From positions 1 through 37,195 of the forward strand of contig CAUJEF010000096.1 of the NCBI GenBank assembly GCA_963169515.1: a stretch of 37,195 bases of DNA, in the 5' to 3' direction. A program made the translations under genes and the position numbers. The notes under the pieces were generated by a model. It was not told the origin of the DNA and did no database searches. It saw only the letters and a program-made list of their open reading frames with translations. How positions within the stretch are numbered: the first letter of the stretch is position 1; every line of letters starts with the position of its first letter. Below are positions 2,289 through 37,195 of this stretch, in pieces. The stretch is from Bdellovibrionota bacterium (GTDB lineage Bacteria > Bdellovibrionota > Bdellovibrionia > Bdellovibrionales > JAEYZS01).

Positions 2289-2346
2289 AGCCCAGTCTTC
2301 TGCCGACACCCTAATCATCCCATATTTTCTGATCTACAATTAAACC

Positions 2347-3074: not shown

Positions 3075-3286
3075 TAATACCACAAGTTTTGCAGCGACCA
3101 TAGCCCGCCAACAATAAGGCTAATTAGAGCCAAAAAACGATGGCTTTGGAATTGCACCATAAGTCCTTTTGGCAAGCGCTCTTCCCCCAGCCGAATAAGT
3201 GCGGGCATATTTAAAACAAATGTCGCGACAAGACCGTAAAGAAAAACAAAGTAAGGAAAGATTTTATCTAATTCCTGATATGTCAT
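3071..3286 (-). CDS. Small membrane protein with two TM helices
   Basis: Two hydrophobic segments; start taken at MTYQELDK (3286) rather than 3382. Confidence 0.65.
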   Translation of the reverse strand: MTYQELDKIFPYFVFLYGLVATFVLNMPALIRLGEERLPKGLMVQFQSHRFLALISLIVGGLWSLQNLWYY

Positions 3287-3460
3287 AAACTCTATTCGGT
3301 AAAAAAGATTTGCGATCAAGTCCAAGCCCTTTATGTCAAGTGAAATTAACGACAACCCCGTTCCAAATTGAGACAGGATCAATTATTTTCGAGACTTACA
3401 GTCTTCTCTCCCAGACCCAAAAAATATTTTTTTGTTTTTTCAACCCGGCTATAAAAAGTT

Positions 3461-3469
3461 TGATATACT
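3461..3469 (+). promoter_or_regulatory. Extended -10 sigma70 promoter of 6S RNA
   Basis: TGaTATACT about 10 nt upstream of the start of the closing stem. Confidence 0.6.
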
Positions 3470-3475
3470 AGTGGC

Positions 3476-3657
3476 CGAGGATTCGGTTGCTTGAGGACAG
3501 TGGTAAATAACCCTACAAGGATTACATAAGGGGGCGGTTCTTGGCGATGGTGAGCAAGCTCAGCGTGTACTGAGAAGCCTAAAGTTGTTATACTGCCTAC
3601 CACCTTAAAGAAAATGGGTTATGTATCGAGAGCTTCTTGTGACCGATCCATTTTTTT
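3476..3657 (+). ncRNA. ssrS: 6S RNA
   Basis: About 175-nt rod structure: closing stem GGAT(T)CGGTTGC/GTGACCGATCC, TAACCC/GGGTTA, A-rich central bubble, TAAGG..GGCGGT/ACTGCC..CCTTA, apical CTCAG/CTGAG hairpin, followed by a T7 tract; CCACCT...GGGTT 3' strand typical of 6S. Confidence 0.8.
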
Positions 3658-3737
3658 ATCTTAAATATCCGGAATTCGGATAATTTTTTCAGCATTAAAT
3701 TTGACTTCATCCATCTAAAAAAGTAGCTTTTCCCTCG

Positions 3738-5000: not shown

Positions 5001-5214
5001 AAAAAAAATAAAACGACTGGAAGAGATTGTTCAGGCTATGGAGAGCGAAGACCTCGAGCTTGAAAAATCTTTGAATCTTTTTGAAGAAGGCGTTCGTTTG
5101 ACGAAAGAGTGTCAATCCCACCTGACACAAGCAGAACAAAAAGTACGTGTGCTGTTGGGCGTGGATACGAACGGGAATCCAATCACAAAAGATTTTAAGC
5201 CAAACGAGGCCTGA
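4993..5214 (+). CDS. xseB: Exodeoxyribonuclease VII small subunit
   Basis: FEKKIKRLEEIV..LEKSLNLFEEGVRL..C..L..AEQKV; start 4993 overlaps the end of xseA. Confidence 0.96.
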   Translation: MFEKKIKRLEEIVQAMESEDLELEKSLNLFEEGVRLTKECQSHLTQAEQKVRVLLGVDTNGNPITKDFKPNEA

Positions 5215-6065
5215 TGAGTGATTTTCAAAAGACATGGCAAAGCTATGTTGAAGCCCTGCAGTCGTATATGCGGCGGTATACGGAGGCATTAAAATCTAAT
5301 TCGGCCCCAGCATTGAAAAACTTGGTTTCTGCGATGGAATACTCAGCTTTAAATGGGGGCAAGCGGTTTCGTCCGGTTTTAGCATTGGCAACGGCGGACC
5401 TTTTGGGAGCGGCGTCAACGGTGGTTCTTCCATACGCTGCGGCAATCGAGTTCATTCATGCTTATTCGCTTATTCATGATGATTTGCCGGCCATGGATAA
5501 CGATGACGTTCGACGAAACCGGCCTTCAAACCACAAAGTTTATGGTGACGCCGTTGCGCTATTGGCTGGGGACGCGTTGCTAACAGAGGCCTTCGGGGTA
5601 GCAACTTTATCCACAGCAGAACCGCAAAGGGTTTTGCATGCGATCCAATACTTGTCCGAATCCTGTGGCGTTCGGGGGATGGTTGGCGGGCAGGCCATGG
5701 AACTCTACCCCAGGGAGCGGGAGCTTGAGCTCAATGAAATTTTGGAGGTTCACCGCGGCAAAACAGGAGCGCTTATACGGGCGGCAATTCTTGGAGCGGC
5801 CATGCTTGTCGGAGCAGATGAAAAAAAATTTGAAAATCTAAAAAAATATTCTGAGAGCTTAGGTCTTGCGTTTCAAGTCAAGGATGACATTTTAGATGCC
5901 GACAAAATGGAATCGAATAATTTCGTGCACTTTATGGGCCTTGAAAAGGCTAAAAAATACCTTGAAACCCTGACAGAAAACGGTCACTCATGCCTTATAG
6001 ATTTTGGGCAGAGGGCAGGTTTTCTAAAGGAAATTGCCTCTTATAATTTTAAACGCAATGAATAA
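5214..6065 (+). CDS. ispA: Polyprenyl (farnesyl/geranylgeranyl) diphosphate synthase
   Basis: GGKRFRP, SLIHDDLPAMDNDDVRR, GKTGAL, LGLAFQVKDDILD motifs. Confidence 0.95.
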   Translation: MSDFQKTWQSYVEALQSYMRRYTEALKSNSAPALKNLVSAMEYSALNGGKRFRPVLALATADLLGAASTVVLPYAAAIEFIHAYSLIHDDLPAMDNDDVRRNRPSNHKVYGDAVALLAGDALLTEAFGVATLSTAEPQRVLHAIQYLSESCGVRGMVGGQAMELYPRERELELNEILEVHRGKTGALIRAAILGAAMLVGADEKKFENLKKYSESLGLAFQVKDDILDADKMESNNFVHFMGLEKAKKYLETLTENGHSCLIDFGQRAGFLKEIASYNFKRNE

Positions 6066-6813
6066 GCGTGCGGATCAAATTTTGGTTGACCTGGGTCTTT
6101 TTGAATCTCGATCAAAAGCGCAATCAGCAATCGATGAGGGTCTGGTCTTTTTTCAAGGAAAAGTTATCGAGAAGCCAAGTACAAATATCGTTTCAGGTGC
6201 GCGAGCCCAAGATTTTGAGGTGCAGGCGGGCGCGGCCAACCGATTTGTTTCACGTGGGGGTTTAAAGCTCGAGGGTGCGCTGAAAACAATAAAATTAGAC
6301 GTAAGAAACTTTGAGGTTCTTGACGTGGGGATTTCAACGGGTGGGTTTACGGACTGTTTATTACAAGCAGGCGTTCGTTTCGTTGTTGGGGTGGACGTGG
6401 GAAGTGGGCAGATACACTCTAAAATATCAAAAAAACAGAACGTCGAGATTTTTGAAAATACTCATATTAAAGATTTTAAAGCGGATAGAAAATTTGATCT
6501 TGTTGTTGTGGATGTTTCATTCATTTCTTTGAGAAACGTGTTACCGTTTATAACACCAAGGATGAAAAGGCAGGGTCATCTTTTGGCGCTTGTAAAGCCG
6601 CAGTTTGAACTCGATGCGAAAAAATTAGGGAAGGGCGGCATCGTTAAAGATTCAACGCAATTTGAAAAAATAGAAAGTGATTTAAAAACATTTGTTCAAG
6701 AGTTAGAATTAACAGTCTTGGGCTATTTTGAAAGTCCGATTTCTGGAAAAGACGGCAATAAGGAGTTCTTCATCTATGCTTCGAAAAATCTTAACAACAA
6801 TCACTCTTCTTAG
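6058..6813 (+). CDS. tlyA: TlyA family rRNA 2'-O-methyltransferase
   Basis: S4 domain (RADQILV..GL.ESRSKA), FVSRGGLKL, LDVGISTGGFTD, DVSFISL, LVKPQFE, SPISGKDGNKEF; start at MNKRAD. Confidence 0.95.
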   Translation: MNKRADQILVDLGLFESRSKAQSAIDEGLVFFQGKVIEKPSTNIVSGARAQDFEVQAGAANRFVSRGGLKLEGALKTIKLDVRNFEVLDVGISTGGFTDCLLQAGVRFVVGVDVGSGQIHSKISKKQNVEIFENTHIKDFKADRKFDLVVVDVSFISLRNVLPFITPRMKRQGHLLALVKPQFELDAKKLGKGGIVKDSTQFEKIESDLKTFVQELELTVLGYFESPISGKDGNKEFFIYASKNLNNNHSS

Positions 6814-7672
6814 TTTGCTTGCAGGCTGCGCTACGGGTCGTCGTACAGGCGGCGAAACAGACACCGCCGAGCCAAACCAAGAATCTCCAGCATCCCAAGC
6901 CCAAACGGCTTGGTCAGTGCCGCCAAAGATAGGAATTATCCTTGGCCCAGGGGGGATGAAATCTTTTGCTCACATTGGGGTTTTGCGCGAGCTCGAAAGC
7001 GCGCGGATACCGATTAATATGATCGCGGGGATGGAGTGGGGGGCGCTTGTTGCGGGCACATATTCGTTAAAAAGAAAAGCAAACGATGTTGAATGGAAGC
7101 TTTTTAAAATTCCAAAAGATATTTTGCCACGCAAAGAATTTATGGGTCACAGGACGGAACCCACGTCAATGAATGATTTTACACCGTTTTTGGAAAATAC
7201 TTTTGGGAGTATGAATATTACGGATGGCGAAATTCCATTCATATGCCCGACCAAGTCGCTTACGAAATATGCGAGCCTGATTTTTCAAAGAAACAAATAT
7301 GTAGATGCTTTACAGCTGTGCTTGCCGTTTCCCCCACTCTTTAAACCGTATCAAAACTGGGTTGCAAACCCTTACAGTGTGAAGGCTCTGTCGGACGCGC
7401 TGAAGAAAGCTGGCATGGATTATGTTATTCTTGTGAATGTAACTCCTGGAATTCAAAGGCTAAATGATGACGCCTCAGCCGCCGAGTTTATTTTGTGGAA
7501 TCACGTTATGGATGAGATGAATGAGGGAAAAAATTACGTAAATTACGTTATAGACGTTAACATTCAAGACAAAAGCGTTCTCGACTTTGATTCTCGCCGA
7601 GAGTTTATTTCAATCGGTCAACAGTACGGAAAAATTGCTGCCCAAAGACTAGCGCGAATACTGGGGTTTTAG
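6776..7672 (+). CDS. Patatin-like lipoprotein, probably catalytically inactive
   Basis: Lipobox LLAGC; LGPGGMKSFAHIGVL oxyanion region; GMEWG in place of GxSxG. Confidence 0.8.
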   Translation: MLRKILTTITLLSLLAGCATGRRTGGETDTAEPNQESPASQAQTAWSVPPKIGIILGPGGMKSFAHIGVLRELESARIPINMIAGMEWGALVAGTYSLKRKANDVEWKLFKIPKDILPRKEFMGHRTEPTSMNDFTPFLENTFGSMNITDGEIPFICPTKSLTKYASLIFQRNKYVDALQLCLPFPPLFKPYQNWVANPYSVKALSDALKKAGMDYVILVNVTPGIQRLNDDASAAEFILWNHVMDEMNEGKNYVNYVIDVNIQDKSVLDFDSRREFISIGQQYGKIAAQRLARILGF

Positions 7673-7680
7673 TAAAAAAG

Positions 7681-7725
7681 GGTGCCAGGCACCGCCCGGC
7701 CGGTGGCCGGACGGTGCCTGGCACC
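7681..7725. repeat. REP doublet (REPIN-like)
   Basis: GGTGCCAGGCACC and GGTGCCTGGCACC in inverted orientation; 21-bp arms, one mismatch, 3-nt loop; same core flanks the RAYT gene. Confidence 0.85.
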
Positions 7726-7746
7726 AAATCCAAAGGATGCTGATTT

Positions 7747-9084
7747 ATGTCTAGAAAACCGCTTGTTCCCATCGAAATTTTTAAAAAACGTCGCGCAAAA
7801 CTTGCGTCTCAATTTAAAGGTGCTGCGCTAATTTTAACCGCAAACCCAGAATTTGAGCGTAACCATGATGCGGGTTATGAGTACCGTCAGGATACAAATT
7901 TCTTTTATATGACGGGCTTTGAAGAGCCGGAATCAGTATTTGTTTTCCGCCCTGGATGTAAGCCTGAAACAACATTGTTTGTTCGAAAAAGGGATCCCCT
8001 TCGTGAAACTTGGGATGGATTTCGATTTGGGCCTGAAGGCGCAAAAAAAGAGTTCGAAATGGACTCAACCCACGAAATTTCACAACTTTCGACGATATTG
8101 CCGGATTTATTAAAAGAGGTTGGACAAGTTTACTACCGCCTGCGAAAAGACGCGCACTGGGATCAAGAGATTATGAAGGCCATTGAGGAAAACAAAAAAA
8201 ACGAAGGCCGTAGTGGCAAGGGTCTTCTCGCGATACATGATCCGTCGGTGGTAATTGGGGAGGCGCGGCTAATTAAATCAGAAGAAGAAAAGCAATGGAT
8301 GCGGAAAGCCGGTGAAATTTCTGCAAATGCGCATGTCGAAGCGATGAAATTCGTAAGGCCAGGGGTGAACGAGCGCCATGTTCAGGGTGTTATTTACAAT
8401 TCGTTTTATCAACAGAATTCCCCACGGGTAGGTTACAACGCGATCGTGGCTTCTGGCGCGAATGCGTGTGTTTTGCACTATATTTTTAACGACCAAGAAT
8501 GTAAGGACGGCGATTTGCTGTTAATTGATGCCGGAGCCGAATACAATTACTACAGTGGCGATATAACAAGAACATTTCCTGTGAATGGAAAATACACAAC
8601 GGCACAAAAGCAAGTTTATGAAAAAGTTCTTTATGTACAAAAAGCCATTCTTAAAATGATTAAACCCGGGGTTTTATTCGAAGAGCTTCAAAACACGACA
8701 ATTGATATGCTTACAAATGCATTGATTGAATTAAAACTGCTCAAGGGAAAAAAGGAAGATCTGATAGCGAGCAAAGAATTTCGAAAATATTATATGCATG
8801 GCGTTTCGCATTGGTTGGGGATGGATGTCCATGATGCCGGTCTGTATCAGGTGGGTGGAAAATCACGAGCGCTCGAGCCCGGAATGTGTTTTACAGTCGA
8901 GCCAGGTCTTTATATACCGGCCGACGATGCGACCGCACCAAAAGAATTTAGAGGAATCGGCATCCGTATCGAAGACGATATCATTGTTACAGAGGATGGG
9001 TGTGAAATCCTAACCTCAAAAGTCCCAAAAGAAATTAACGAAATCGAAGCCCTAATGGGGTGCCAGGCACCCCCCGTCCGCTAA
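7747..9084 (+). CDS. pepP: Xaa-Pro aminopeptidase (aminopeptidase P)
   Basis: YRQDTNFFYMTGFEEP N-domain; LLIDAGAE..Y.GDITRTFP, HGVSHWLGMDVHD, TVEPGLY, GIGIRIEDD. Confidence 0.97.
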   Translation: MSRKPLVPIEIFKKRRAKLASQFKGAALILTANPEFERNHDAGYEYRQDTNFFYMTGFEEPESVFVFRPGCKPETTLFVRKRDPLRETWDGFRFGPEGAKKEFEMDSTHEISQLSTILPDLLKEVGQVYYRLRKDAHWDQEIMKAIEENKKNEGRSGKGLLAIHDPSVVIGEARLIKSEEEKQWMRKAGEISANAHVEAMKFVRPGVNERHVQGVIYNSFYQQNSPRVGYNAIVASGANACVLHYIFNDQECKDGDLLLIDAGAEYNYYSGDITRTFPVNGKYTTAQKQVYEKVLYVQKAILKMIKPGVLFEELQNTTIDMLTNALIELKLLKGKKEDLIASKEFRKYYMHGVSHWLGMDVHDAGLYQVGGKSRALEPGMCFTVEPGLYIPADDATAPKEFRGIGIRIEDDIIVTEDGCEILTSKVPKEINEIEALMGCQAPPVR

Positions 9085-9090
9085 TCGGAC
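9052..9090. repeat. REP element, left flank of RAYT
   Basis: CTAAT-GGGGTGCCAGGCACCCC palindrome followed by GTCCG-CTAAT-CGGAC hairpin; overlaps pepP 3' end. Confidence 0.85.
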
Positions 9091-9096
9091 GCGAAG

Positions 9097-9684
9097 TTAC
9101 TTCGGGGGCAGTCTGAATGCTTTTGAGAATTCCATTTGGGTATCTTCGTCTAAAGATAAATTTAGCCAGTCGAGATATTCCGTCCTTCTGCTAGGAATTA
9201 AGTGCCCAAATGGTGATGGCTCTATCTGGATACGGGAACTCAACAGTAAATGTTCGGCAAGGGTTGAATTTTTATAAGCTTCTGCCCGGGTTACAATTTT
9301 TGCATCAACAGGATTTCGATAAATATATTTGTGTGCGTTGTAATAATAATACTGATCAGAAATGACCTTCCATTTATACCGCCCCCCGAATACGTGATTT
9401 ATTCTCCCCGTATATTTATTTATTGCTTTGCTGATTTGTGTAAGAACAAAATGCATGGCTTCGCTGATGTTAGATCGTGGAGTAGTGCAAGTCAGATGAT
9501 AGTGGTTAGACATTAGAAGAAAACTATGAATTTTTAGAGCATAGTTTTTCTGGGCGAGCTGCAAGTTTTTGATGAATATTTCCCAGCAGATATCTTCGGG
9601 CAAGTAAAACCATTCCTTATTGTTCGACCGTCCGAAAATATGATATGGATTTGCATTATTCAAAATAATATGTCGTCTTCCCAT
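9097..9684 (-). CDS. REP-associated tyrosine transposase (RAYT, IS200/Y1 HUH superfamily)
   Basis: YHIFGRSNNK, LMSNHYH (HUH), HVFGGRY, YIYRNPVDA (catalytic Tyr region); flanked by inverted REPs; start taken at MGRRH. Confidence 0.92.
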   Translation of the reverse strand: MGRRHIILNNANPYHIFGRSNNKEWFYLPEDICWEIFIKNLQLAQKNYALKIHSFLLMSNHYHLTCTTPRSNISEAMHFVLTQISKAINKYTGRINHVFGGRYKWKVISDQYYYYNAHKYIYRNPVDAKIVTRAEAYKNSTLAEHLLLSSRIQIEPSPFGHLIPSRRTEYLDWLNLSLDEDTQMEFSKAFRLPPK

Positions 9685-9750
9685 ATGATTGGCATATGCA
9701 AGCGACCATACCAATCTATCTAGCATTATAATTGGTTTGGCAGACAAAGA

Positions 9751-9788
9751 GTCCGGTAGCCGGACAGGGGGTGCCTGGCACCCATTAG
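9751..9788. repeat. REP element, right flank of RAYT (inverted)
   Basis: GTCCGG-TAG-CCGGAC hairpin then GGGTGCCTGGCACCC-ATTAG; near reverse complement of 9052-9090. Confidence 0.85.
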
Positions 9789-10534
9789 CGGAAGCGGTGG
9801 ATGAGCCAGTTGTGTTTTTGGGCGTGTTCTTCGAGCAAGAGTTCGCTTTTGTATATTTTCATTTGGCTTGTGGCGGAAAGAACAGCAAGTTTTACGTGGG
9901 ATGAGCTGTCGATGAGCTCCAGGTCTCCAATAGTGTTGCCCGCAGCAACAATGGGGCGGACGCCATTTGTATGTTGCAACAGGGCGTCTGTCTTTCCCTT
10001 TCCATAGGTAATTGGACCGTCTTGGAGGTCGGTAACAATTCCATTTTCGATTTTCGTTGTAACACCCAAAACATTCTCAGCAGGTATTCCAAGCGGTTTT
10101 ACGGGCGCTTCGACGGCCCACTTTACCGAAGCCGTAACAACAATAATTTCAACCCCTTTAAATTGAAGATATTCGATCAAATTTTTTATAGATTCAAAAT
10201 AAGGATAATTTTTTTCCTGCAGAAAACATTGTTCAGCCCATTTTTTCACTTCAGAAATTTTTTTATTTTTGTGAATTTGCGCTAGCCATAGAAATGCATC
10301 TTCTGCACGGTTGGCTTTAATAGAATAAACATGGCCCCACGGGTCTTTAGGAAGGTCTAATAAATTGTTATCAATCTCGTAATCAAAAAACTTGTTTCCA
10401 GCGTCGTTGTCCCACAGAGTTCCGTCTGCGTCGAAAGCCGCATACCATGGCTCAGGTATTTCAGAAAGGGCGGTGTCTAGTCTGGACTTAATAAGATCCC
10501 AAGTTTTGTCAGAAAACTCTTTGAAATTTGTCAC
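9785..10534 (-). CDS. HAD-superfamily hydrolase (phosphoserine-phosphatase-like, subfamily IB)
   Basis: Motif I FDADGTLW, motif II VVTAS, motif III GK, motif IV GNTIGD; GTG start. Confidence 0.9.
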   Translation of the reverse strand: MTNFKEFSDKTWDLIKSRLDTALSEIPEPWYAAFDADGTLWDNDAGNKFFDYEIDNNLLDLPKDPWGHVYSIKANRAEDAFLWLAQIHKNKKISEVKKWAEQCFLQEKNYPYFESIKNLIEYLQFKGVEIIVVTASVKWAVEAPVKPLGIPAENVLGVTTKIENGIVTDLQDGPITYGKGKTDALLQHTNGVRPIVAAGNTIGDLELIDSSSHVKLAVLSATSQMKIYKSELLLEEHAQKHNWLIHRFR

Positions 10535-10570
10535 GAAATCATTATTGTAAACATTAACAAGAAAGACAAC

Positions 10571-12202
10571 GTGATGTTTGCGTTTGCTGACCGCAGTAAA
10601 AATATAGAAAAATTAAAAAGTGAGCACTTTGATCTCGTCATTATAGGCGGAGGCATTACTGGCGCCGGCGTAGCAAGGGATGCTGCAAGTCGGGGGATGA
10701 AGGTAGCCATTATTGACGCAAACGATTTCGCCTTCGGGACAAGCTCCAGATCGAGCAAATTAATTCATGGTGGAATTCGGTATTTAGAAAATTTTGAGTT
10801 TCATTTGGTCTATGAAGCACTTTCAGAGAGAAAGGTACTTTTTGAAATTGCCCCACACCTGGTTCATCCACTGCGATTTCTAATTCCGTTGTTTGACGGG
10901 GACCGCGTAGGGATGGGGCGAATGGGTGTTGGGATGTGGGCGTACGAGGCGCTTTCGCTATTTGAAGCTCCCCAGCTCCATGAGCGGCTTTCCAAAAACC
11001 GAACATTGGAGCGCATTTCTATTTTAAAACCAGAGGGTCTAAAAGGCTCTTACGTTTATTCGGATGCTTATATGGATGACGACCGTTTGGTTATGGAAAC
11101 TCTTCGATCAGCAGTGAAGCAGGGCGCAGTAGCTGTAAGTTTTGCCAAGGCAACGGGAGCGCGAATGAGCAACGGCAAAGTCGTGGGGCTAGAGTGTATA
11201 GACGTGATCGGTCAGAACACATTTGCTATTTCTGGGAAGCATTTTGTAAGCACGGTTGGTCCATGGACAGATATTGTTGGGCACTCAATTTTTAAAAATT
11301 GGAAACGGCAACTGCGCCCGAGCAAAGGGGTCCATATTACCCTTAATAAGGACCGTCTTCCGCTCAGTTGCGCAGTTGTAATGTCGACAGACAAAGATCA
11401 AAAACGAATTGTATTTGGAATTCCTCGACATGAAATGATTATTATAGGAACGACAGACACTGATTTTCAAGGCGACCCAGCAGATGTGCATACATCTAAA
11501 AACGATGTTGATTATCTGTTGGCGGTCGCACGGAATTATTTCCCAGGGGCAAATTTAAAACAAGAAGACATCATTGCATCGTATGCGGGCGTGCGTCCGC
11601 TGGTTGACGATGGGTCGACAACTGAAAGCAAAACAAGCCGCGAGCATTTAATTCTTACGGACGAGCGTAATGTGACTTTTGTTGCGGGGGGAAAGTACAC
11701 AACGTATCGACGAATGGCCCAACAAACGGTTGAGTTGTGCCTGCGGCACTTTTACAATACGGAAGATCGGGTTCGATTTGCGAGAAATCAAACAAAAAAT
11801 CCATTAAATCCGTTGGCATCAGCGCAGGCTCTAAGCGAGGCGCAGAAAGAGATCCCAAGAATTGCCCGGCATATGGGAGCCTCGGAAAAGGATGCCCAAG
11901 TCTTAATAGAGCGACATGGGCTTGAGGCGATCGAAATCGTAAACAAATATTTTTCTGCGGGGAAAACAATTTGGGAGCTAGAGGCGCAATTTGCAATGGA
12001 CGAAACTTGCTGTGGACGGATCATAGACTTTTACTTGCGGCGGGTACCTCTATTTTTATCCCAAAAAAATCATGGTTACGAGATGCTCGGAAAAATATCC
12101 AAGATATTTGCACAAAAATACTCCTGGTCTGATTCAGAAATCAGACAACAAATTCAAGCAGCGCAAGACTTTGAAAAGTTTGAAATGGGATGGAAAAATT
12201 AG
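10571..12202 (+). CDS. glpD: FAD-dependent glycerol-3-phosphate dehydrogenase/oxidase
   Basis: IIGGGITGAG, GTSSRSSKLIHGGIRYL, DDDRL, IGTTDT, YAGVRPL, GGKYTTYRRMA. Confidence 0.95.
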   Translation: MMFAFADRSKNIEKLKSEHFDLVIIGGGITGAGVARDAASRGMKVAIIDANDFAFGTSSRSSKLIHGGIRYLENFEFHLVYEALSERKVLFEIAPHLVHPLRFLIPLFDGDRVGMGRMGVGMWAYEALSLFEAPQLHERLSKNRTLERISILKPEGLKGSYVYSDAYMDDDRLVMETLRSAVKQGAVAVSFAKATGARMSNGKVVGLECIDVIGQNTFAISGKHFVSTVGPWTDIVGHSIFKNWKRQLRPSKGVHITLNKDRLPLSCAVVMSTDKDQKRIVFGIPRHEMIIIGTTDTDFQGDPADVHTSKNDVDYLLAVARNYFPGANLKQEDIIASYAGVRPLVDDGSTTESKTSREHLILTDERNVTFVAGGKYTTYRRMAQQTVELCLRHFYNTEDRVRFARNQTKNPLNPLASAQALSEAQKEIPRIARHMGASEKDAQVLIERHGLEAIEIVNKYFSAGKTIWELEAQFAMDETCCGRIIDFYLRRVPLFLSQKNHGYEMLGKISKIFAQKYSWSDSEIRQQIQAAQDFEKFEMGWKN

Positions 12203-30382: not shown

Positions 30383-30501
30383 GTTTGAGCGGCTGCGGAA
30401 CAACTTTTTGACGGCCGTTTAAGAATTTGTTTACATCGCTTTTGAAAATCTCATTGTGACTCGATTTTACGATCTAAGCATTTGATTTTAAGCCGAAAAC
30501 T

Positions 30502-30517
30502 TGGTTTTGGTCTTGCA
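30502..30517 (+). promoter_or_regulatory. sigma54-like promoter
   Basis: TGGTTTTGGTCTTGCA, GG-N10-GC, before ATG 30535. Confidence 0.5.
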
Positions 30518-30534
30518 TCTTCTACAGATAGGGG

Positions 30535-30825
30535 ATGCACATGAATTGCGTTGTAAAAGTATTGATATTCGTAATCAGTCTAAGCTCTATTGAATCTGTT
30601 GCAGCTTCATCAAAAAAGTTCCACAAAGCGAGCTATGTTGTGAAAAACTATCCCAAGTTACCCAAGAAAATGCCTAAGCTAAAAATGAAGCAAGAACGAA
30701 TTGTGAAGACAAAGCGGGCCAAGAACGCTGTTGTAGCCCAGCCACAAATAAGCCGAAAAATTTCTTCAGAAAACGTAAGCGCAATAAGCGATCCGGCCGC
30801 TTTAATTCAAGCCTTGGCGGAATAA
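30535..30825 (+). CDS. Small basic exported protein
   Basis: Hydrophobic N-terminus, Lys-rich body. Confidence 0.6.
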   Translation: MHMNCVVKVLIFVISLSSIESVAASSKKFHKASYVVKNYPKLPKKMPKLKMKQERIVKTKRAKNAVVAQPQISRKISSENVSAISDPAALIQALAE

Positions 30826-30875
30826 AGAATAAATAGGTTGCGTGAGGGGAAGACTAATTATACACGGTACGATCT

Positions 30876-31676
30876 ATGTATACCGTGCGGTCCAAGCTTC
30901 AATATTCAATAATGCACCTTCTTACGATATTCTTGGCGGGAGTGTTGCTTCTGCGTTTTTCAGAGGCATCGTCTCCAAAAGGTGAGAAGTCTATTATGGT
31001 TATGGCGGCGTCAAGCTTGACCAATGTGCTTCCCGAAGTGGCCGCTGCATGGAAATCTCAAGGTGGCTATGATGTTAAGTTTAATTTTGAGTCAACGTCT
31101 CGTTTGGCTCAACAAATCGTAGCTGGCGCGCCAGTCGATATTTTTTTCTCTGCTGATTCGGAGTGGATGTCCTATCTAGGGGGAAGGGGGATGATTAATA
31201 CGGCATCTCGCACGGCACTTCTGTCCAATCGCATTGTTCTTATTGTTTCTTCTGATTCGACGTTTGCCCCCTCTTCCCCTGGAGAAATCTCAAGTCCTCG
31301 TTTGAAACATCTGGCCCTTGCTGGGGAGTTCGTGCCTGCCGGAAAATTTGCTCGGGCGGCTTTGAAATCAGAAGGCGTTCTGGAAAAAGTGCAAGAAAAA
31401 ATAGTGAATGCAGATAATGTTCGGGCAGCCCTTCAATGGGTTGCCAAGAAGGAGGCCGAGGCTGGGATTGTGTTTCAGACGGACGCAAAAGTTGAACCCC
31501 GGGTTAAGGTTACCTTTGTTTTTCCTGAGGCGAGCCATCCAAAAATTGAATACCCGGTGGCGGTGGTCAAAGGCTCAAAAAATTCCGAAGCGGCCATACA
31601 ATTTTTGAAATTTTGCCAGGGGAATAAAGCAAAAAAAATTTTTGAGGCAGCGGGCTTTACCGTTTTGACTAAGTGA
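30876..31676 (+). CDS. modA: Molybdate ABC transporter substrate-binding protein
   Basis: AASSLT, STSRLAQQI..GAP.D.F.SAD, VPAGKFA, NVRAAL, GIVFQTDA, I.YP; exact start uncertain (30876 or 30912). Confidence 0.95.
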   Translation: MYTVRSKLQYSIMHLLTIFLAGVLLLRFSEASSPKGEKSIMVMAASSLTNVLPEVAAAWKSQGGYDVKFNFESTSRLAQQIVAGAPVDIFFSADSEWMSYLGGRGMINTASRTALLSNRIVLIVSSDSTFAPSSPGEISSPRLKHLALAGEFVPAGKFARAALKSEGVLEKVQEKIVNADNVRAALQWVAKKEAEAGIVFQTDAKVEPRVKVTFVFPEASHPKIEYPVAVVKGSKNSEAAIQFLKFCQGNKAKKIFEAAGFTVLTK

Positions 31677-32383
31677 TGCAAGGAGTAAGTCCGGCCCAGG
31701 CGATCGAGCTTTCTATTCAGGTAGGAATTTGGTGCGCAGTACTGGGGTTGCCGGTTGCTCTGGGCTTAGGATGGATACTTGCGCGCTATGAATTTCGTGG
31801 AAAAATGCTGGTCAATATGGTGGTGTTTGCCCCCCTTGTTGTTCCGCCTGTCGTGACAGGATTCCTCTTGCTAGAGGTTTTCGGCCGGGCGGCTCCGATT
31901 GGTCATTTTTTCGAGGAGCTCGGGCTTCCGTTTTCATTCTCTCTTGCTGGAGCGGTGCTGGCGTCTTTTGTTGTCGGGTTACCTTTTTATGTGATGGTTA
32001 TTCGATCTGCATTTGAATCTGTTGATCCTCGCCTTGAGGAGATAGCTTGGACACTGGGGGCCCCACCAAGGAAGACATTTTTTAGGGTCACGTTGCCACT
32101 TGCCTTGCCAGGGATAGCGGCGGGAGCCGTGCTTGCGTTTGCCCGTGCGCTGGGTGAATTTGGGGCGACCGTTATTTTGGCTGGCAATATGGAAGGCAAA
32201 ACGAGGACTATCGCTCTGGCGGTGTATACCCTTCTTGAATCACCCAATGGGATGGATGCAAGTCGCGTGCTTGTTGTAGCGAGCCTCTTCATTTCGTTTG
32301 CGGCGTTATTTGGGTATGAGGTTCTTCTGCGCTGGCATCGCCGTCGGCTTGAGTGGCGTCATGACTGGGGAAATGATGTTTAA
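31673..32383 (+). CDS. modB: Molybdate ABC transporter permease
   Basis: PLVVPPVVTGF.LL, LEEIA.TLGA (EAA loop), FARALGEFGAT. Confidence 0.95.
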   Translation: MMQGVSPAQAIELSIQVGIWCAVLGLPVALGLGWILARYEFRGKMLVNMVVFAPLVVPPVVTGFLLLEVFGRAAPIGHFFEELGLPFSFSLAGAVLASFVVGLPFYVMVIRSAFESVDPRLEEIAWTLGAPPRKTFFRVTLPLALPGIAAGAVLAFARALGEFGATVILAGNMEGKTRTIALAVYTLLESPNGMDASRVLVVASLFISFAALFGYEVLLRWHRRRLEWRHDWGNDV

Positions 32384-32993
32384 TGTGGACGTAGTGCTCA
32401 AGCGGGAGCGATTTCAGATCAACGCGAAAATGCGCTCAGACTCTTCGGCCATTGCGATTGTCGGTCCCTCTGGAGCAGGAAAATCCACATTTCTTCGAAT
32501 TTTAGCAGGGCTAGAAAGAAGATCAATCGGTCGCGTTTTGTTTGATGGTAAGATTTGGCAAGACAGTGAAAATGGCACCTTCGTGCATCCATGGCAACGC
32601 CGTCTCGGATATGTCCCTCAAGATAGCTTATTAATCCCGACAATGACGGTTTTTGAAAACCTTTGCTTTTCTGGGGCCGACATTGGCGAGGCAAAGATCA
32701 TTGCCGAGCGCCTTGCAATCACGTCTCTTTTGTATAGACGACCACGGATGCTTTCGGGCGGAGAAAAACAGAGGGTGTCATTGGGACGTGCGCTTTTGGC
32801 AAAGCCCCAAGTGCTTTTGCTTGATGAGCCTTTCTCTGCCCTTGATCGTGACTTGCGTACTCGCGTGGCAAAGGAGCTCGTCTTAATATGTCATGAACGC
32901 AGGTTGCCACTCATCCTTGTCAGCCATGATCAAAGAGATGTAATGTCTTTGGCGCAAGAGGTATGGACTTTTGAAAACGGATTATTAAAATAG
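32373..32993 (+). CDS. modC: Molybdate ABC transporter ATP-binding protein (short form)
   Basis: GPSGAGKST, LSGGEKQRV, LLLDEPF, VSHD; ends right after the ATPase domain. Confidence 0.92.
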   Translation: MMFNVDVVLKRERFQINAKMRSDSSAIAIVGPSGAGKSTFLRILAGLERRSIGRVLFDGKIWQDSENGTFVHPWQRRLGYVPQDSLLIPTMTVFENLCFSGADIGEAKIIAERLAITSLLYRRPRMLSGGEKQRVSLGRALLAKPQVLLLDEPFSALDRDLRTRVAKELVLICHERRLPLILVSHDQRDVMSLAQEVWTFENGLLK

Positions 32994-33042
32994 AATTCAT
33001 GCTCTCGGCTAATATTTTTGTTCTCATTGTTCTCGAAAAACT

Positions 33043-33597
33043 CTAAAAACCCACCAGAATTCCGATTCCAAATAAAATAAATAGCGCGCTTGCAATTCTA
33101 TGCACCAATTTCATTGGGGCCTTTTCGGTAAACTTATGACCGAAAAAAACAGCAAGTCCATCGGCAACAAGCATTCCCATTGTCGTGCCTACCGTGACCA
33201 TCACAGGAGCCGCAAATTTTGCTCCTAGCGCAACTGTTGCCAGCTGAGTTTTATCGCCCATTTCAGCAAAAAAGAAAGCCACTATCGTTGTTGAGAAGGG
33301 TCCCCAGCCGTGCTTATCCTGGTAGCCCTCGTCTTTATCCGGCATCAACATCCACAACCCAAAACCGATGAATGTTGCCGCTAATGTCCACTTCAATACC
33401 TCTGCAGAGACGTAGTAAGTAATAAATGTACCTACAGAGCTTGCAAGTGCATGGTTCAAAAGAGTGGCCACCAAAATTCCCAGCATTATCGGAACTGGTT
33501 TGCGAAATCGCGCCGCGAGCACAAGCGCGAGAAGCTGAGTTTTGTCACCCATCTCACTTACAAAAACTAAAAGAAACGAATTTATAATTGCTTCCAT
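33043..33597 (-). CDS. TMEM165/GDT1 (UPF0016) family Mn2+ exporter
   Basis: Two EMGDKTQL motifs; multiple TMs; upstream Mn riboswitch. Confidence 0.95.
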   Translation of the reverse strand: MEAIINSFLLVFVSEMGDKTQLLALVLAARFRKPVPIMLGILVATLLNHALASSVGTFITYYVSAEVLKWTLAATFIGFGLWMLMPDKDEGYQDKHGWGPFSTTIVAFFFAEMGDKTQLATVALGAKFAAPVMVTVGTTMGMLVADGLAVFFGHKFTEKAPMKLVHRIASALFILFGIGILVGF

Positions 33598-33599
33598 GG

Positions 33600-33805
33600 A
33601 AACCTCACTTGCTTTGCCGTGAGGTCGGAAGTCTTTGGTCCCAGAACGAACCTTTTAGACACAAGACGACACGGCGTTGTTAAAACACCAGTGCCAGTCT
33701 CGCCAAGAAAAGCTTTCGCTTTTCCAAATGTGCCGGGGTTTAAACCCAGTATGTCGACACATCATTCCGATAAAAAATCGGATCGACTACTCCCTAACAA
33801 TCAAA
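33600..33805 (-). ncRNA. yybP-ykoY manganese riboswitch with expression platform
   Basis: Minus strand AGGGAGTAG (33795-33787), GTCGACATAC (33758-33749), TTGGCGAGACT (33706-33696); ACCTCAC/GTGAGGT hairpin sequesters the RBS. Confidence 0.9.
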
Positions 33806-33842
33806 GGGTACGGCATTAGGAGCATCAGTCAAGTAGCAGGTG

Positions 33843-34051
33843 GTTCGAACATTATAGAAATTGGCGGAGAGGGCCGTAAAGTAGGCGAACTCTCTGCCGT
33901 GGTTATATTTGAGTTTGAGGTTTATCCCGAGCCGAAAATCCTGACAAAAGCTGAGCTAACGCATTTAATGCGTTTACATGGCACCACTGTTGCGGTGGCC
34001 AAATTCCTTGGCTGCAGCCAGCCCCACGTGTCCGAACGATTAAACGGCTAG
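33843..34051 (+). repeat. Junction repeat copy 1: attP-like site plus headless HTH-coding tail
   Basis: TGGCGGAGAGGG core inside GTTCG...CGAAC symmetry; about 190-bp direct repeat with 35943-36138. Confidence 0.8.
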
Positions 34052-34569
34052 TGCTTTACAAATCCTGGGCAGGTATTTACCCATGCCTCGTTGTTACTGA
34101 GACATTTTTTAGAATTACAAATAGTATCGAGGGTTAATGCTTCGTAATTTACTTTGTGACGACCCAGGGGGCCAAACTGAATAAGTGCTTTTTGCTCCTG
34201 GGTGTTTTGAACATTTTTGAGTTCGTCACGAGCGCAAATTTTTACTTGTGATCCTGATTGCAGTATTTTTTCAATTCTGTGCTCTTGAGAAGAGCAGGTG
34301 TCTTTATCCTGATGTGTTGATTGCATAATCTCCAACACTTCATTTTTATCATTTAAAATGTACATGAAATACTGATGTCTCCAATTATTTTCAGCTTCAG
34401 CATTAAAAAAAAGGCAATTCTGTCGGACACGATTTGAACTTACCTGAATGACATGAAGATCATCTGCTTTGGTATGAAATGTTTCGATATTAAAAACAGG
34501 GGCGGACTGGCATCCGGCAATAAAAAGATACAGCGATAGCACGATGAATCTATTTTTTAAGCGTCGCAT
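34048..34569 (-). CDS. Cys-rich hypothetical lipoprotein
   Basis: Lipobox IAGC; six further cysteines; overlaps upstream SLT-like gene by 20 bp. Confidence 0.8.
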   Translation of the reverse strand: MRRLKNRFIVLSLYLFIAGCQSAPVFNIETFHTKADDLHVIQVSSNRVRQNCLFFNAEAENNWRHQYFMYILNDKNEVLEIMQSTHQDKDTCSSQEHRIEKILQSGSQVKICARDELKNVQNTQEQKALIQFGPLGRHKVNYEALTLDTICNSKKCLSNNEAWVNTCPGFVKH

Positions 34570-35227
34570 AGGCCTCCCTATATTTTTTGAGTCCAGCCTT
34601 TTTATATTCTGAATCGCTTTTTAATAAACCTTTGTATTCTAAAATTATTTCTTCGTGGCTTGGAGTCCTCTTAAGTTTACTTGCGGCAGTTTCTTTCTTG
34701 CGATGTAGCCACCGAACTGCCATTGGTATCGAGATATTCGGATCTTTGAGATCTTTTTGTCGAATATCTTTGAAAATAAACTCTTTAGCTTCGCCTTTCG
34801 GATCTTGCAGGATTTTTAAGGTTTTCTTTGTGATTTGAGCGATGCCAACTGCAATTTTTCTATTTCCAAGAGGGTCCGGGTTAAAATCAGATTCGCTTGA
34901 GATAAGCGCTTTTACGACATCTGGATCGAGTGGCGGATCGGCATTAAATTTCTTGTTAAAATAATCCGTCCATACGGCGATGACTTCATCGTACTTATCA
35001 GCACTTTTATATTTTTCCGTTAATTTTCCTTTGGTGGGATACGCAATTCCCTTACGGTCATAACCTTTAAAGATGGCCGCAATTTCGCCAGCATCTAAAT
35101 ATGTGCCTTTCAAGCGCCGCAGATGACGATCTCTTATCGTGATTCCCGTTGGATTTTTCTCACTCACGGGAATATGCATGGGATGTTCCCGAACAGTCGT
35201 GACTTTTTTGCGAGGCCTTTTAGGCAT
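34550..35227 (-). CDS. Lysozyme-like (SLT-domain) protein without signal peptide
   Basis: DPDVVKALISSESDF (catalytic Glu motif), AVGIAQI, L.DP..SI..AVRWL. Confidence 0.75.
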   Translation of the reverse strand: MPKRPRKKVTTVREHPMHIPVSEKNPTGITIRDRHLRRLKGTYLDAGEIAAIFKGYDRKGIAYPTKGKLTEKYKSADKYDEVIAVWTDYFNKKFNADPPLDPDVVKALISSESDFNPDPLGNRKIAVGIAQITKKTLKILQDPKGEAKEFIFKDIRQKDLKDPNISIPMAVRWLHRKKETAASKLKRTPSHEEIILEYKGLLKSDSEYKKAGLKKYREAYATLKK

Positions 35228-35265
35228 AACTTCAATTTATCTTAAAATATGTGAGCGCCTCAAGA

Positions 35266-35571
35266 TTAATAGTGCGGAATCACTGCGAGAATAGTGAGCT
35301 GTTTCGGCTTTGGGCCGTAGGCCCATAGTATTCGATGAGCTTGTGGTGTGTTGTTCTGAACATATGAACTAAATACTTTCAATCTATATACTTTTTCGAA
35401 TGCCTCGATAGGGTGGGAGTTCAAGCCTGGGTGCATGGGGTTACGAGATAAACTGCCTAAAGCCTTTTTCAATTGTTTTTGAAGTCCAACGCGTCCGGCA
35501 TCAGCCATGATGGCTTTAACCTGGAGCTCCGATTCGGCAGTCATTCTCAACTCAAATGGACCGTGGCTCAC
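35266..35571 (-). CDS. RelE/ParE-superfamily-like toxin
   Basis: 101 aa; L.RNP.HPGLNSH, RILW, LTILAVIPH pattern; directly downstream of AbrB-like gene. Confidence 0.65.
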   Translation of the reverse strand: MSHGPFELRMTAESELQVKAIMADAGRVGLQKQLKKALGSLSRNPMHPGLNSHPIEAFEKVYRLKVFSSYVQNNTPQAHRILWAYGPKPKQLTILAVIPHY

Positions 35572-35574
35572 AGC

Positions 35575-35820
35575 CTAATCAATCCAATCTGGCGGCACTT
35601 TTTTTGTTAAGCCTTTATTGAAATCAGAGACTGACTTTTTTAAACTTTCAAGAACTTCAGCTTCCGCCAAAGTTACCTTTTTCTGTGGAACAAGATGGAG
35701 CGAGCCGTCTTTTAACGACTCAATGGCAAATGACCCAACGTCCTTGCGAAGCTCTTTGGGGAGAGTAATCCGGCCACGCTCATCTATTTCTACTGTTTTG
35801 TTTTTTTTTCTTGCACCCAT
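35575..35820 (-). CDS. AbrB/MazE/SpoVT-family antitoxin
   Basis: VEIDERGRITLPKELRK swapped-hairpin motif. Confidence 0.85.
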   Translation of the reverse strand: MGARKKNKTVEIDERGRITLPKELRKDVGSFAIESLKDGSLHLVPQKKVTLAEAEVLESLKKSVSDFNKGLTKKVPPDWID

Positions 35821-35826
35821 ATCGCT

Positions 35827-35855
35827 ATTATACCCATTTTCCCAATGTGGGTAAA
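35827..35855 (-). promoter_or_regulatory. sigma70 promoter with overlapping operator for the AbrB/RelE pair
   Basis: TTTACC-N17-TATAAT ending 6 nt before ATG; TACCCA/TGGGTA inverted repeat at 35831-35853. Confidence 0.65.
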
Positions 35856-35923
35856 TAGGAATTTGTGGCGTTCGCCTACTTTAGCAGCTGAATTCATCCA
35901 ACGTAGTGAAGTTTATGGCGTAT

Positions 35924-36138
35924 TTTAAAAATCTATCAAAACTGGCGGAGAGGGCCATAAAGTAGGCGAACTCTCTGCGTTAGTTATATTTGAGTTTGAG
36001 GCTTATCCTGAGTCGAAAATCCTGACGACCAATGAGTTAAAGCGTTTATTGCGCTTATACGGCACCACTGTAGCGGTAGCGAAGTTTCTTGGCTGCAGCC
36101 AATCGCATGTATCAGTGCGGTTAAATTCAAAAAATTAG
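35924..36138 (+). repeat. Junction repeat copy 2: att-like site plus headless HTH-coding tail
   Basis: TGGCGGAGAGGGCCATAAAGTAGGCGAAC; colinear without indels with copy 1; in-frame stop at 35926-35928 and no ATG. Confidence 0.8.
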
Positions 36139-36140
36139 CC

Positions 36141-36170
36141 TTGCGCATTTGTAATTTATAAGTTACAAAT
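36141..36170 (+). promoter_or_regulatory. sigma70 promoter with palindromic operator for the toxin-antitoxin pair
   Basis: TTGCGC-N17-TACAAA; 24-bp palindrome ATTTGTAA(T)TTA/TAA(G)TTACAAAT at 36147-36170. Confidence 0.7.
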
Positions 36171-36175
36171 AGATT

Positions 36176-36520
36176 GTGGAAGTTAAGCCGAAGACTCTTG
36201 TCATCTATGAAACCGCAAATGGCAAAGAGCCATTCAATGAATGGCTTAATAGCCTTAAAGATAAACGAGTCAAGGCAACGGTCGATGCAAGGTTGATTCG
36301 GGTTCGTAAAGGCAATCTTGGTCTATGCCGCTCGCTGGGCGAGGGGCTATGGGAGTTGAAATTCGATCTCGGACCAGGCTTTCGAATTTACTTTGGGCAG
36401 CACGGAGATTCGATTGTCGTATTGCTGCATGGTGGAGATAAGAAAACCCAATCGCGGGACATTGAAACCGCAAAAACATATTGGCTAGATTACCTGAAAG
36501 ATCAGGGAGTAAAGCTGTAG
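36176..36520 (+). CDS. RelE/HigB-like addiction module toxin (HI1419-upstream type)
   Basis: GKEPF.EWL.SLKD, RL.R...GNLG, GLWELK.D.GPGFRIYFG, LLHGGDKKTQSRDI; GTG start. Confidence 0.92.
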   Translation: MEVKPKTLVIYETANGKEPFNEWLNSLKDKRVKATVDARLIRVRKGNLGLCRSLGEGLWELKFDLGPGFRIYFGQHGDSIVVLLHGGDKKTQSRDIETAKTYWLDYLKDQGVKL

Positions 36521-36531
36521 GAGTTTTAAAT

Positions 36532-36840
36532 ATGGCTCGTAATATGAAAAAATACGAAGATGATCTTTCTGCTCGTCTTAAAGATCAGGAATACGCCGTT
36601 GAATATTTAAATGCCGTTTTAGAAGATGCTGGCGATGATCAGCAAGAGCGTTTCTTGGTAGCTCTAAAAGATGTGGCTAAAGCCCACGGTGTCACGAGCG
36701 TTGCCCACGATTCAAATGTGGCGCGTGAGGCGCTGTATCGTGTTCTTTCAGACAAGGGCAACCCAGAGCTTGCAACGCTGCTTTCAGTTTTGTCGGCGCT
36801 CGGGCTTAAGCTTAGAATTGACTCGGGCAAGGCCTCTTAA
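36532..36840 (+). CDS. HigA-like HTH addiction module antidote (HI1420 type)
   Basis: AGGAG RBS; A.EYL...LE, FL.AL.DVAKA.G...VA, REALYR.LS.KGNP...TL. Confidence 0.92.
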   Translation: MARNMKKYEDDLSARLKDQEYAVEYLNAVLEDAGDDQQERFLVALKDVAKAHGVTSVAHDSNVAREALYRVLSDKGNPELATLLSVLSALGLKLRIDSGKAS

Positions 36841-37001
36841 AACGAATGCCGCTTACCGTGCGGCCCTTGCTTCTGCTATAGAGTGACAAGTCTCGCTCTA
36901 CCCATGTGAAAAATTCGTAAATTTCGCGTCAATGCCATTATAAGTGGTTTAAACACTGGCATGTTAATTTCAATAGACGATCTCCAAAACCAGGAGCCGT
37001 T

Positions 37002-37121
37002 ATGTCCAAATTAATGAAAATTAGCATTCTTTTGTTTTGCACAGTTGCCGTAGCTGACCTGCCCCCACGGTTTGTACCAGTACAATTAGTCTTTTCATCA
37101 AGCAACATGTATTTTCCCTGA
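37002..37121 (+). other. Short 39-aa ORF with signal-peptide-like start; small protein or truncated gene
   Basis: AGGAG RBS; MSKLMKISILLFCTVAVA; near-sigma54 motif TGGCATGTTAATTTCA at 36957-36972. Confidence 0.3.
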
Positions 37122-37195
37122 TGTAAAAGTTAATGGTGCTGGTGGTTTATAATTCAATGAGCTGTGCGGTCTGACATGATTGTAATGCTTCTTCC

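Follow-up and report, generated by a model that had tools for sequence, protein, structure and literature searches.

What do the repeats that punctuate the right end of a contig from a Bdellovibrionota bacterium mark? The contig (CAUJEF010000096.1, here C96), taken whole, is the 37,195-nt window of this analysis; the assembly to which it belongs comprises 173 contigs and 2.38 Mb and is 96% complete. A preliminary description of the region had proposed that a core motif recurs in one orientation at positions 30815, 33862 and 35943, that it derives from a tRNA-Ser gene's 3' end, and that it separates cassettes lacking a recombinase, captured one after another by a large serine recombinase (LSR) acting in trans, much as in an integron; a stack of eroded genomic islands was named as the alternative. 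We find that the locus looks like a tandem stack of small, partly eroded LSR islands, with a cut-off end of the recombinase gene at each junction.

Core repeats, a tRNA gene and a recombinase frame

Exact copies of the 12-mer TGGCGGAGAGGG lie on the plus strand at 33862 and 35943 (junctions 1 and 2), and these are the sole two in the window. The whole assembly holds three; the third copy, on contig C47, forms the 3' end of a tRNA-Ser(GGA) gene. ARAGORN annotated 30 tRNA and tmRNA genes in the genome, three of them for tRNA-Ser, and found no tRNA gene in the window. The tmRNA gene sits on a different contig (C170), and tRNA-Ser(GGA) is represented by a single gene, at C47:2067–2156 on the minus strand, which ends ...CCCTCTCCGCCA, the reverse complement of the 12-mer. 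Directly adjoining this gene is an open reading frame (ORF) of 563 aa (C47:475–2166) with the domains Resolvase (PF00239, E 8.9e-33), Recombinase (PF07508, E 4.9e-16) and Zn_ribbon_recom (PF13408, E 3e-9); this ORF is an LSR. The preliminary description had predicted both a tRNA-Ser origin for the cores and, elsewhere in the genome, a minus-strand tRNA-Ser together with an LSR, and the two genes are indeed present, side by side. The best NCBIfam match of the C47 LSR is CcrB (E 6.7e-46), but its 157 bits fall far under the family cut-off of 900, and it is therefore not a CcrB member.

The LSR ORF stays open through the core and then runs antisense across the whole tRNA gene. In its frame the core reads GGC GGA GAG GG., and both window repeats are open throughout in this frame. 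The repeats that the two cores open are direct and 192 nt long (33853–34044 and 35934–36125; 81% identity, offset 2081 nt), with one mismatch within the first 37 bases. Read in the LSR frame, each encodes a short C-terminal piece ending in a stop codon (tails 1 and 2). The two tails differ at 8, 8 and 21 sites in codon positions 1, 2 and 3, with a dN/dS of 0.16, and the tail frame is therefore under purifying selection. In total, the assembly contains a single tRNA-Ser(GGA) gene, a single LSR of the C47 family and two tails.

Searched exhaustively with tail 1, the protein libraries gave 56 matches at E ≤ 0.001. Nearly all are ORFs of 44–156 aa in which homology starts at the core-encoded residues, and their N-terminal extensions are mutually unrelated. 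In P0141, a recombinase-like protein of 483 aa, the tail forms the C-terminus, and in P0129 the last conserved LSR motif is fused to the tail. Two further candidates for fused LSR-tail forms, P0103 and P0044, were rejected, as their extension is only loosely similar (BLASTP E 1.6). No Pfam or NCBIfam family covers the tails. An AlphaFold2 model built from 28 aligned tails had a mean confidence (pLDDT) of 76.8; its first half is of low confidence, and residues 36–68 form three helices with block means of 84–95. A Foldseek search of the PDB with this model gave no match at E ≤ 0.001 (best E 0.69), and its top rows were generic DNA-binding helix-turn-helix (HTH) folds. The C-terminal 35 residues are thus predicted to be three helices with an HTH-like arrangement. 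We read the repeats at 33862 and 35943 as HTH-like LSR tails of ~60 residues that integration would have split off from the recombinase.

Attachment sites of LSRs are short, ~40–50 bp, with imperfect inverted half-sites around a central crossover. Counted by hand, the P arm on C47 and the P' arm in the window are inverted copies at 11 of 14 positions, lie 20 nt apart and have their centre inside the core; the T-arm of the tRNA, also counted by hand, carries a motif similar to the half-site, 5 nt nearer the centre.

The third proposed junction did not hold up. Only the first 7 of the 12 core bases (TGGCGGA) are found at 30815, and the window holds 10 copies of this 7-mer where chance predicts 4.56; a count of 10 was reached in 3 of 100 shuffles. 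Near 30815 there is no P' motif at up to three mismatches and no tail homology was found. As an eroded junction the site offered a loose likeness by eye (TAAA at the right offset), and was rejected for want of a P' motif, a tail and a breakpoint between strains. We judged it to be a chance match, which leaves two of the three cores as originally described.

The same architecture in related loci

Among 8000 candidates scored, 1324 LSR homologues passed E ≤ 0.001, most of them proteins from metagenome-assembled genomes of Bdellovibrionales, and their C-termini often read as tRNA antisense. Through the LSR alignment we fetched 79 related genome loci, 72 of which had room beyond the LSR. A minus-strand tRNA stands at the LSR end in 49 of these 72 (Leu 26, Ala 6, Arg 4, Ser 3, Met 3, Gly 2, Asp 2, Val 2, Phe 1). 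The T of the terminal TGG occupies codon position 3 of the crossing ORF in 47 of the 49, and in 44 the ORF extends over more than 900 nt without a stop.

Tail homologues were found on the LSR strand at 15 loci, one tail each. A P' motif of the same class directly follows the core in all 15, and in all 15 the core TGG keeps the same codon phase. Core and tRNA are 3441–7418 nt apart in the 11 loci that hold both ends; cores of 7–8 nt were seen at both ends in five related loci, and TGG-anchored junctions in 15. The P arm (GGTTCG..TACT..) lies left of the tRNA junction and the P' arm (..AGTAG.CGAAC) right of the tail core; the two are inverted copies of one another and both are coding. In single elements the outer (B) arm is the tRNA terminator hairpin.

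Direct evidence that LSR and tail belong to one reading frame came from a tandem junction. At L077:7389–8069 a single uninterrupted ORF of 226 codons spans the P-core-P' junction; its residues 5–74 match the LSR N-terminus (E 2e-20) and its residues 176–221 match the tail (E 6e-8). All 23 core-plus-P' junctions that could be matched by pattern in 37 metagenome loci, found by tail alignment, are in the same phase. The architecture is family-wide.

Several other features of these loci were noted. A 46-aa ORF without a Pfam match (C47:338–478, plus strand) has a stop codon that overlaps the LSR start codon, and of 70 related loci 52 have an ORF of at least 30 aa whose end is no more than 12 nt from where the LSR starts; the small ORF is a candidate LSR partner or directionality factor. 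Right after the tail stop, 5 of the 37 tail-bearing metagenome loci (L139, L141, L147, L150 and L171) have a small resolvase-like gene with ~30% identity to the LSR catalytic domain, which recalls a second recombinase of the DsiA/CcrA type; it is absent from the window. The L150 metagenome contig (positions 1886 and 14298), whose LSR is 78% identical, shows a P arm and core followed by degenerate tRNA remnants, and also holds a stray C-terminal LSR fragment. Decayed arrays therefore recur in the tRNA-Ser subfamily. A relative of another family (locus L022, G022:C7 ~2204–10919) has its own 8.6-kb island at tRNA-Ser(GGA), with the tRNA end repeated over 18 nt at its borders; on it are a distant serine recombinase whose frame crosses the tRNA in antisense, a small resolvase, and a restriction enzyme of the MamI type along with a methylase.

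Layout of the array and competing readings

These observations are probably best explained if the window is the far end of an array of small LSR islands at the 3' end of tRNA-Ser(GGA), with attP inside the LSR gene. The attP would lie ~60 codons ahead of the stop, and all three of its parts would be coding sequence: the P half-site, the core of ~12 bp that the tRNA has in common with it, and the P' half-site. Because attP is placed within the recombinase gene, integration would cut that gene. The LSR body would stay beside the tRNA, reading antisense through it, and the last 62 codons, with the HTH-like domain, would come to lie at the opposite end of the element, directly behind a copy of the core. 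If the window repeats are such detached tails, each of them marks the distal end of one element. On our reading, a free circle or a tandem junction would encode the LSR with its C-terminal HTH, and an integrated copy would end in tRNA-antisense residues.

The first of the two elements, E1 (33862–35942), carries tail 1 on the plus strand, its remaining genes on the minus strand, and no LSR. As the preliminary description had it, the blocks are devoid of recombinases: no ORF in 30535–37195 matched any recombinase family among the Pfam and NCBIfam profiles. Relative to C47, the P-arm motif of E1 (35870) is parted from the inner arm by ~54 nt (~35884–35937), which we read as a probable insertion. 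Lacking a recombinase and with a broken P arm, E1 is therefore read as an eroded, non-autonomous remnant. To its left, the arm of junction 1 codes ...GGSNIIEI in the LSR frame, a degenerate version of the last LSR motif. This arm is P-like, and an older LSR end would therefore once have stood there.

The second element, E2, runs from 35943 onward and consists of tail 2, a toxin-antitoxin (TA) pair of the RelE/ParE type and a small signal-peptide ORF, with its genes on the plus strand. The signal-peptide ORF starts at 37003 and is interrupted at 37054 by an insertion sequence (IS), whose end closes the contig. The same 141-nt IS end is found at C97:1–141 (100%) and inside C102:869–1009 (97%), and the opposite IS end lies at C47:143–1; the IS, presumably IS3-like from its terminal repeat and OrfA-like N-terminus, breaks at least four contigs of the assembly. 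The signal-peptide ORF would remain open across a C96-IS-C47 join. In the simplest layout E2 would consist of 35943–37054, the IS and C47:144–2066, ~3 kb without the IS, and E2 most probably continues past the contig end to the C47 LSR and tRNA.

Next, we compared strains. Twenty public runs from 15 studies contain part of 30400–37195, and four runs from four studies were compared. Three of these have the same arrangement on short contigs at ≥99% identity; a contig of run X5 bridges junction 1 and one of run X8 bridges junction 2. The fourth run, X7, yielded a 12,057-nt contig from a related strain. The differences listed for it number 16 over 30400–33947 and then 22 within 33948–34058, with 80 more beyond those listed (past 34058, if the listing is positional), and homology to the window stops at 34738. 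There follow 691 other bases, a second core with P', a further 1723 bases and a piece of tail. By arithmetic the cores are spaced ~1.5 and ~1.7 kb apart, which is too short for the 1.7-kb LSR gene. The first X7 cassette is a strongly diverged E1 homologue. The breakpoints at cores that the preliminary description expected in relatives are seen in part: the change of content in X7 falls within 86 nt of the first core, but the modABC block to the left is common to that strain at high identity, with no breakpoint at 30815.

Several points weigh against an array of split-gene islands as we describe it. The flanks of the two IS ends show no matching target duplication, so that the link from E2 on C96 to C47 is unproven; like it, the order of insertion, the position of the crossover and any role of the tail are inferences. 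To the left of junction 1 the arm is of the P and not of the B type, so that the array's true edge on the chromosome was not located. A tRNA at the LSR end is absent in 23 of the 72 loci, whose ORF ends are varied and in no case carry this tail, and the 120 LSR homologues nearest to the C47 enzyme all lack the YPEPK motif of the tail. The Logan contigs of the four runs contained neither an excised circle nor an empty attB nor a joint left by loss of E1, although contigs drop rare forms. As far as is known, canonical LSRs recombine only attP with attB, a rule under which the formation of a tandem array is unexplained. Lastly, divergence in the X7 cassette at junction 1 greatly exceeds that of the chromosome beside it, which simple vertical erosion does not predict; the difference in cassettes between near-identical strains is the main observation that simple erosion leaves unexplained. 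Comparison with an empty site yielded nothing further: the flanking genes are shared by 0 of 30 GTDB relatives, no relative turned up when metagenomes were scanned with the 697-aa protein of the flank, and the original attB flank is not recoverable because the source genome (G000) is the sole member of its genus among the relatives.

One reading would accommodate the strain difference by extending the split-gene array. Here recombination would rewrite the recombinase into two isoforms, and recombinase-less cassettes would in addition be exchanged in trans at the junctions. We consider this combination unlikely. On this reading, two LSR isoforms that differ in directionality or regulation could act as a built-in sensor of whether the element is integrated, perhaps in concert with the conserved small ORF that is coupled to the start of the LSR, and tail-first cassettes exchanged in trans could make the locus the equivalent of a cassette array run by a serine recombinase.

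A purely integron-like system, as first proposed, would consist of recombinase-less cassettes (core, P' and tail) that are captured, excised and reshuffled in trans by a single LSR and stabilised by TA modules. Such a system would account for E1, which lacks a recombinase yet is flanked by two cores, and for the X7 strain, which with only 16 listed differences in the 3.5-kb flank carries different small cassettes right of junction 1; cis-mobilisable islands without integration modules have moreover been proposed for the analogous ssrA arrays, in the accessible part of that report (McMurdie et al., 2011; PMC3146451). However, intact recombination sites are lacking, since the P arm of E1 is split by ~54 nt and that of junction 1 is degenerate. 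The 15 tail-bearing related genome loci have one tail each, the assembled contigs contain no circle or deletion joint, the cassette genes lie on both strands with promoter-like sites of their own, and the site at 30815 fails. The junctions, moreover, are the interior of a recombinase gene (core, P' and ~60 C-terminal codons) and not free-standing capture sites. We therefore regard the integron-like proposal as quite improbable. The alternative that accompanied it, a stack of eroded genomic islands, fits better, with the cassette differences between near-identical strains still to be accounted for.

It is also conceivable that the 192-nt repeats are a small, independent HTH gene, for a regulator, an excisionase or a directionality factor; elements would carry it at one of their ends, where it would overlap att without being part of the recombinase. 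The predicted three-helix bundle resembles generic DNA-binding HTH folds, gene callers annotate most of the homologues as proteins of 44–156 aa, some in-frame start lies upstream of the core in 7 of the 15 related tails, and tail 1 has an in-frame GTG at 33899. On the other hand, tail 2 is preceded by an in-frame stop 5 codons upstream of the core, with no ATG, GTG or TTG between, and 8 of the 15 related tails have no start codon. Homology begins exactly at the core, after N-terminal extensions that are mutually unrelated, the tail phase equals the LSR phase in 15 of 15, and single ORFs of LSR plus tail exist. Collectively, these results make an independent gene very unlikely. Chance similarity or plain local duplication without site-specific recombination, for which one might cite that the window has only two copies and that two-copy families often arise by chance, has next to no probability, given that the third genome copy is the tRNA end beside an LSR and that the same architecture recurs in dozens of loci.

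Neighbouring genes, known systems and significance

The features of the region are collected below. Of the gene content given in the preliminary description, we recovered modABC, the exporter and its riboswitch (the latter below threshold), the lipoprotein-like and SLT-domain genes, an AbrB-like gene and the toxin-antidote pair; the RelE gene said to stand beside AbrB was not verified. The 81-aa member of the E1 pair matches PF04014 (E 5.8e-5, just under the cut-off) and TIGR01439, and its 101-aa partner matched no family, even up to E 5.

Features of the right end of the window, by position
Feature	Position	Strand	Remarks
7-mer TGGCGGA	30815..30821	+	last codons and stop of ORF 30535-30825
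modABC operon	30876..32993	+	Pfam and NCBIfam matches
GDT1-family cation exporter	33043-33597	-	PF01169, E 1.5e-45
manganese riboswitch match	33705-33807	-	RF00080, E 1.9e-8; 39.1 bits, under the gathering score (45)
degenerate half-site of the P type, to the left of junction 1	33839..33861	+	GGTTCG at P-arm spacing
junction 1 core	33862..33873	+	identical to reverse complement of tRNA-Ser(GGA) 3' end
tail 1, detached LSR 3' end (our reading)	33863..34051	+	62 codons and stop; LSR frame
P' half-site motif, junction 1	33877..33890	+	TAAAGTAGGCGAAC, 14 nt
lipoprotein-like ORF, E1 cargo	34048..34569	-	173 aa; weak lipid-attachment motif only, E 0.068
SLT-domain (lytic transglycosylase) ORF, E1 cargo	34550..35227	-	225 aa; PF01464, E 8.1e-9
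putative TA pair, E1	35266..35820	-	101-aa ORF and 81-aa AbrB/MazE-like ORF
displaced P-arm motif of E1	35870..35883	+	GTTCGCCTACTTTA, exact reverse complement of P' motif; inverted repeats
junction 2 core	35943..35954	+	exact 12-mer, as at tRNA-Ser(GGA) 3' end
tail 2, detached LSR 3' end (our reading)	35944..36138	+	LSR frame
P' half-site motif, junction 2	35958..35971	+	same 14-nt motif
RelE/ParE-family toxin, E2	36176-36520	+	PF05973; TIGR02683, E 1.8e-33
HI1420-type antidote, E2	36532-36840	+	PF21716; TIGR02684, E 7.6e-21
IS end	37055..37195	+	terminal repeat TGACCTGCCCCC...; closes contig C96

The modABC genes have a G+C content of 0.48–0.53, against 0.425 for the genome. They are without orthologue in 30 relatives, and ModA found only weak matches (22–24% identity), in 2 of the 30. 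GDT1 shares 88% identity with a gene from another family but only 49–52% with homologues in its own. The composition of modABC, the rarity of ModA and the identities of GDT1 suggest that both were acquired horizontally, independently of the islands. The modABC operon is accessory; with no full core, P' motif or tail at 30815 and no strain breakpoint there, its status as a cassette is without support. GDT1 as island cargo found no support either: in G022 the 88%-identical gene lies 12 kb from that genome's own tRNA-Ser(GGA), outside its 8.6-kb island. We also noted a sigma-70-like promoter match (10 of 12 positions; 33851–33880, minus strand) that spans junction 1, upstream of the manganese riboswitch and GDT1; its –35 falls within the P' sequence, and its –10 belongs to the P-like arm. 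Such matches are no more numerous in the region than expected by chance. The sole Rfam match in the window above its gathering score is a 6S/SsrS RNA gene at 3481–3649 (plus strand, 63.8 bits).

The closest precedent that we found, as far as the accessible part of the paper goes, is the set of Dehalococcoides ssrA islands (McMurdie et al., 2011; PMC3146451). There, islands stand in tandem between repeats of the 3' end of ssrA, with a CcrB-like serine recombinase, DsiB, adjoining that gene; fifteen of the islands have no integration module. The dsiB gene always overlaps att and stops beyond it, and the authors suggest that it may be whole only on the circle or where another island adjoins it. 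The same paper also describes composite islands of the staphylococcal cassette chromosome (SCC). Common to the Dehalococcoides islands and the present elements are an LSR at the end proximal to the tRNA or tmRNA gene, tandem 3'-end repeats, module-less islands and a recombinase ORF that runs over att. By contrast, the detached piece here is a conserved, selected 60-residue HTH-like domain, which the accessible part of PMC3146451 does not show. The targets here are tRNA genes (Ser in this genome; Leu, Ala, Arg, Met, Gly, Asp, Val and Phe in relatives), the hosts belong to another phylum, and the elements are far smaller (3.4–7.4 kb). The six-gene Dehalococcoides module (DsiB, DsiA, a RecF-like protein, ParB, Mom and a large protein) is absent from E1, from E2 and from beside the C47 LSR.

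A gene split by its own integration is known from the suicidal tyrosine integrases of SSV1-type archaeal viruses and plasmids, whose attP lies inside the ORF so that integration into a tRNA splits the gene (PMC8371274, PMC7253208). In its accessible part, one review calls this design exclusive to archaea (PMC8371274). In a Riemerella phage, according to the part of the report available, a tyrosine integrase is split at its 5' end in tRNA-Ser (PMC12169736). From what these sources present, the SSV1-type elements and ours share an attP within the integrase ORF, a gene split at a tRNA and remnants that mark element ends. Unlike the SSV1-type integrases, which are tyrosine enzymes split well inside the gene, the C47 enzyme has serine-recombinase domains only and would lose its last tenth.

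Myxophage Mx8 also has its attP inside the int gene, and integration at a tRNA locus turns intP into intX, with an altered C-terminus. Mx8 thus shares the attP-in-gene logic in bacteria, but its enzyme is a tyrosine recombinase and belongs to a phage, not to a mini-island. The SCC composite islands of staphylococci (CcrAB or CcrC) are LSR elements stacked at one site and include recombinase-less pseudo-elements with site repeats at their borders; their target is rlmH, whereas here it is a tRNA, and we know of no split recombinase gene described for them. Integrons rely on the tyrosine recombinase IntI, folded single-stranded attC sites, promoterless co-oriented cassettes and an attI/Pc platform, and carry TA modules in their large arrays. 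The present locus resembles them in its arrays of short units parted by recombination sites and in its TA modules. It differs in having a serine recombinase, genes on the minus strand in E1 and on the plus strand in E2, and coding junctions with LSR half-sites. No IntI-type integrase was found among the ORFs of 30535–37195, and no genome-wide IntI search was made. A literature search, which left subscription journals mostly outside its reach, found no description of the present Bdellovibrionota LSR family or of a split LSR that targets tRNA genes.

The 3' ends of tRNA genes are usually regarded as targets of tyrosine integrases. The present findings point to a large clade of Bdellovibrionota serine integrases that targets tRNA 3' ends through a site inside its own gene. 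For annotation, this means that 'hypothetical' HTH ORFs of 50–110 aa and odd recombinase C-termini would be the two halves of one gene, and that the tails would be precise markers of island ends. Known serine integrases, which are widely used genome-engineering tools, need a separate directionality factor, and the split design offers a testable route to the control of directionality. For the evolution of these genomes, the locus suggests that arrays of recombinase-less, TA-carrying cassettes can accumulate beside a tRNA gene and vary among near-identical strains.

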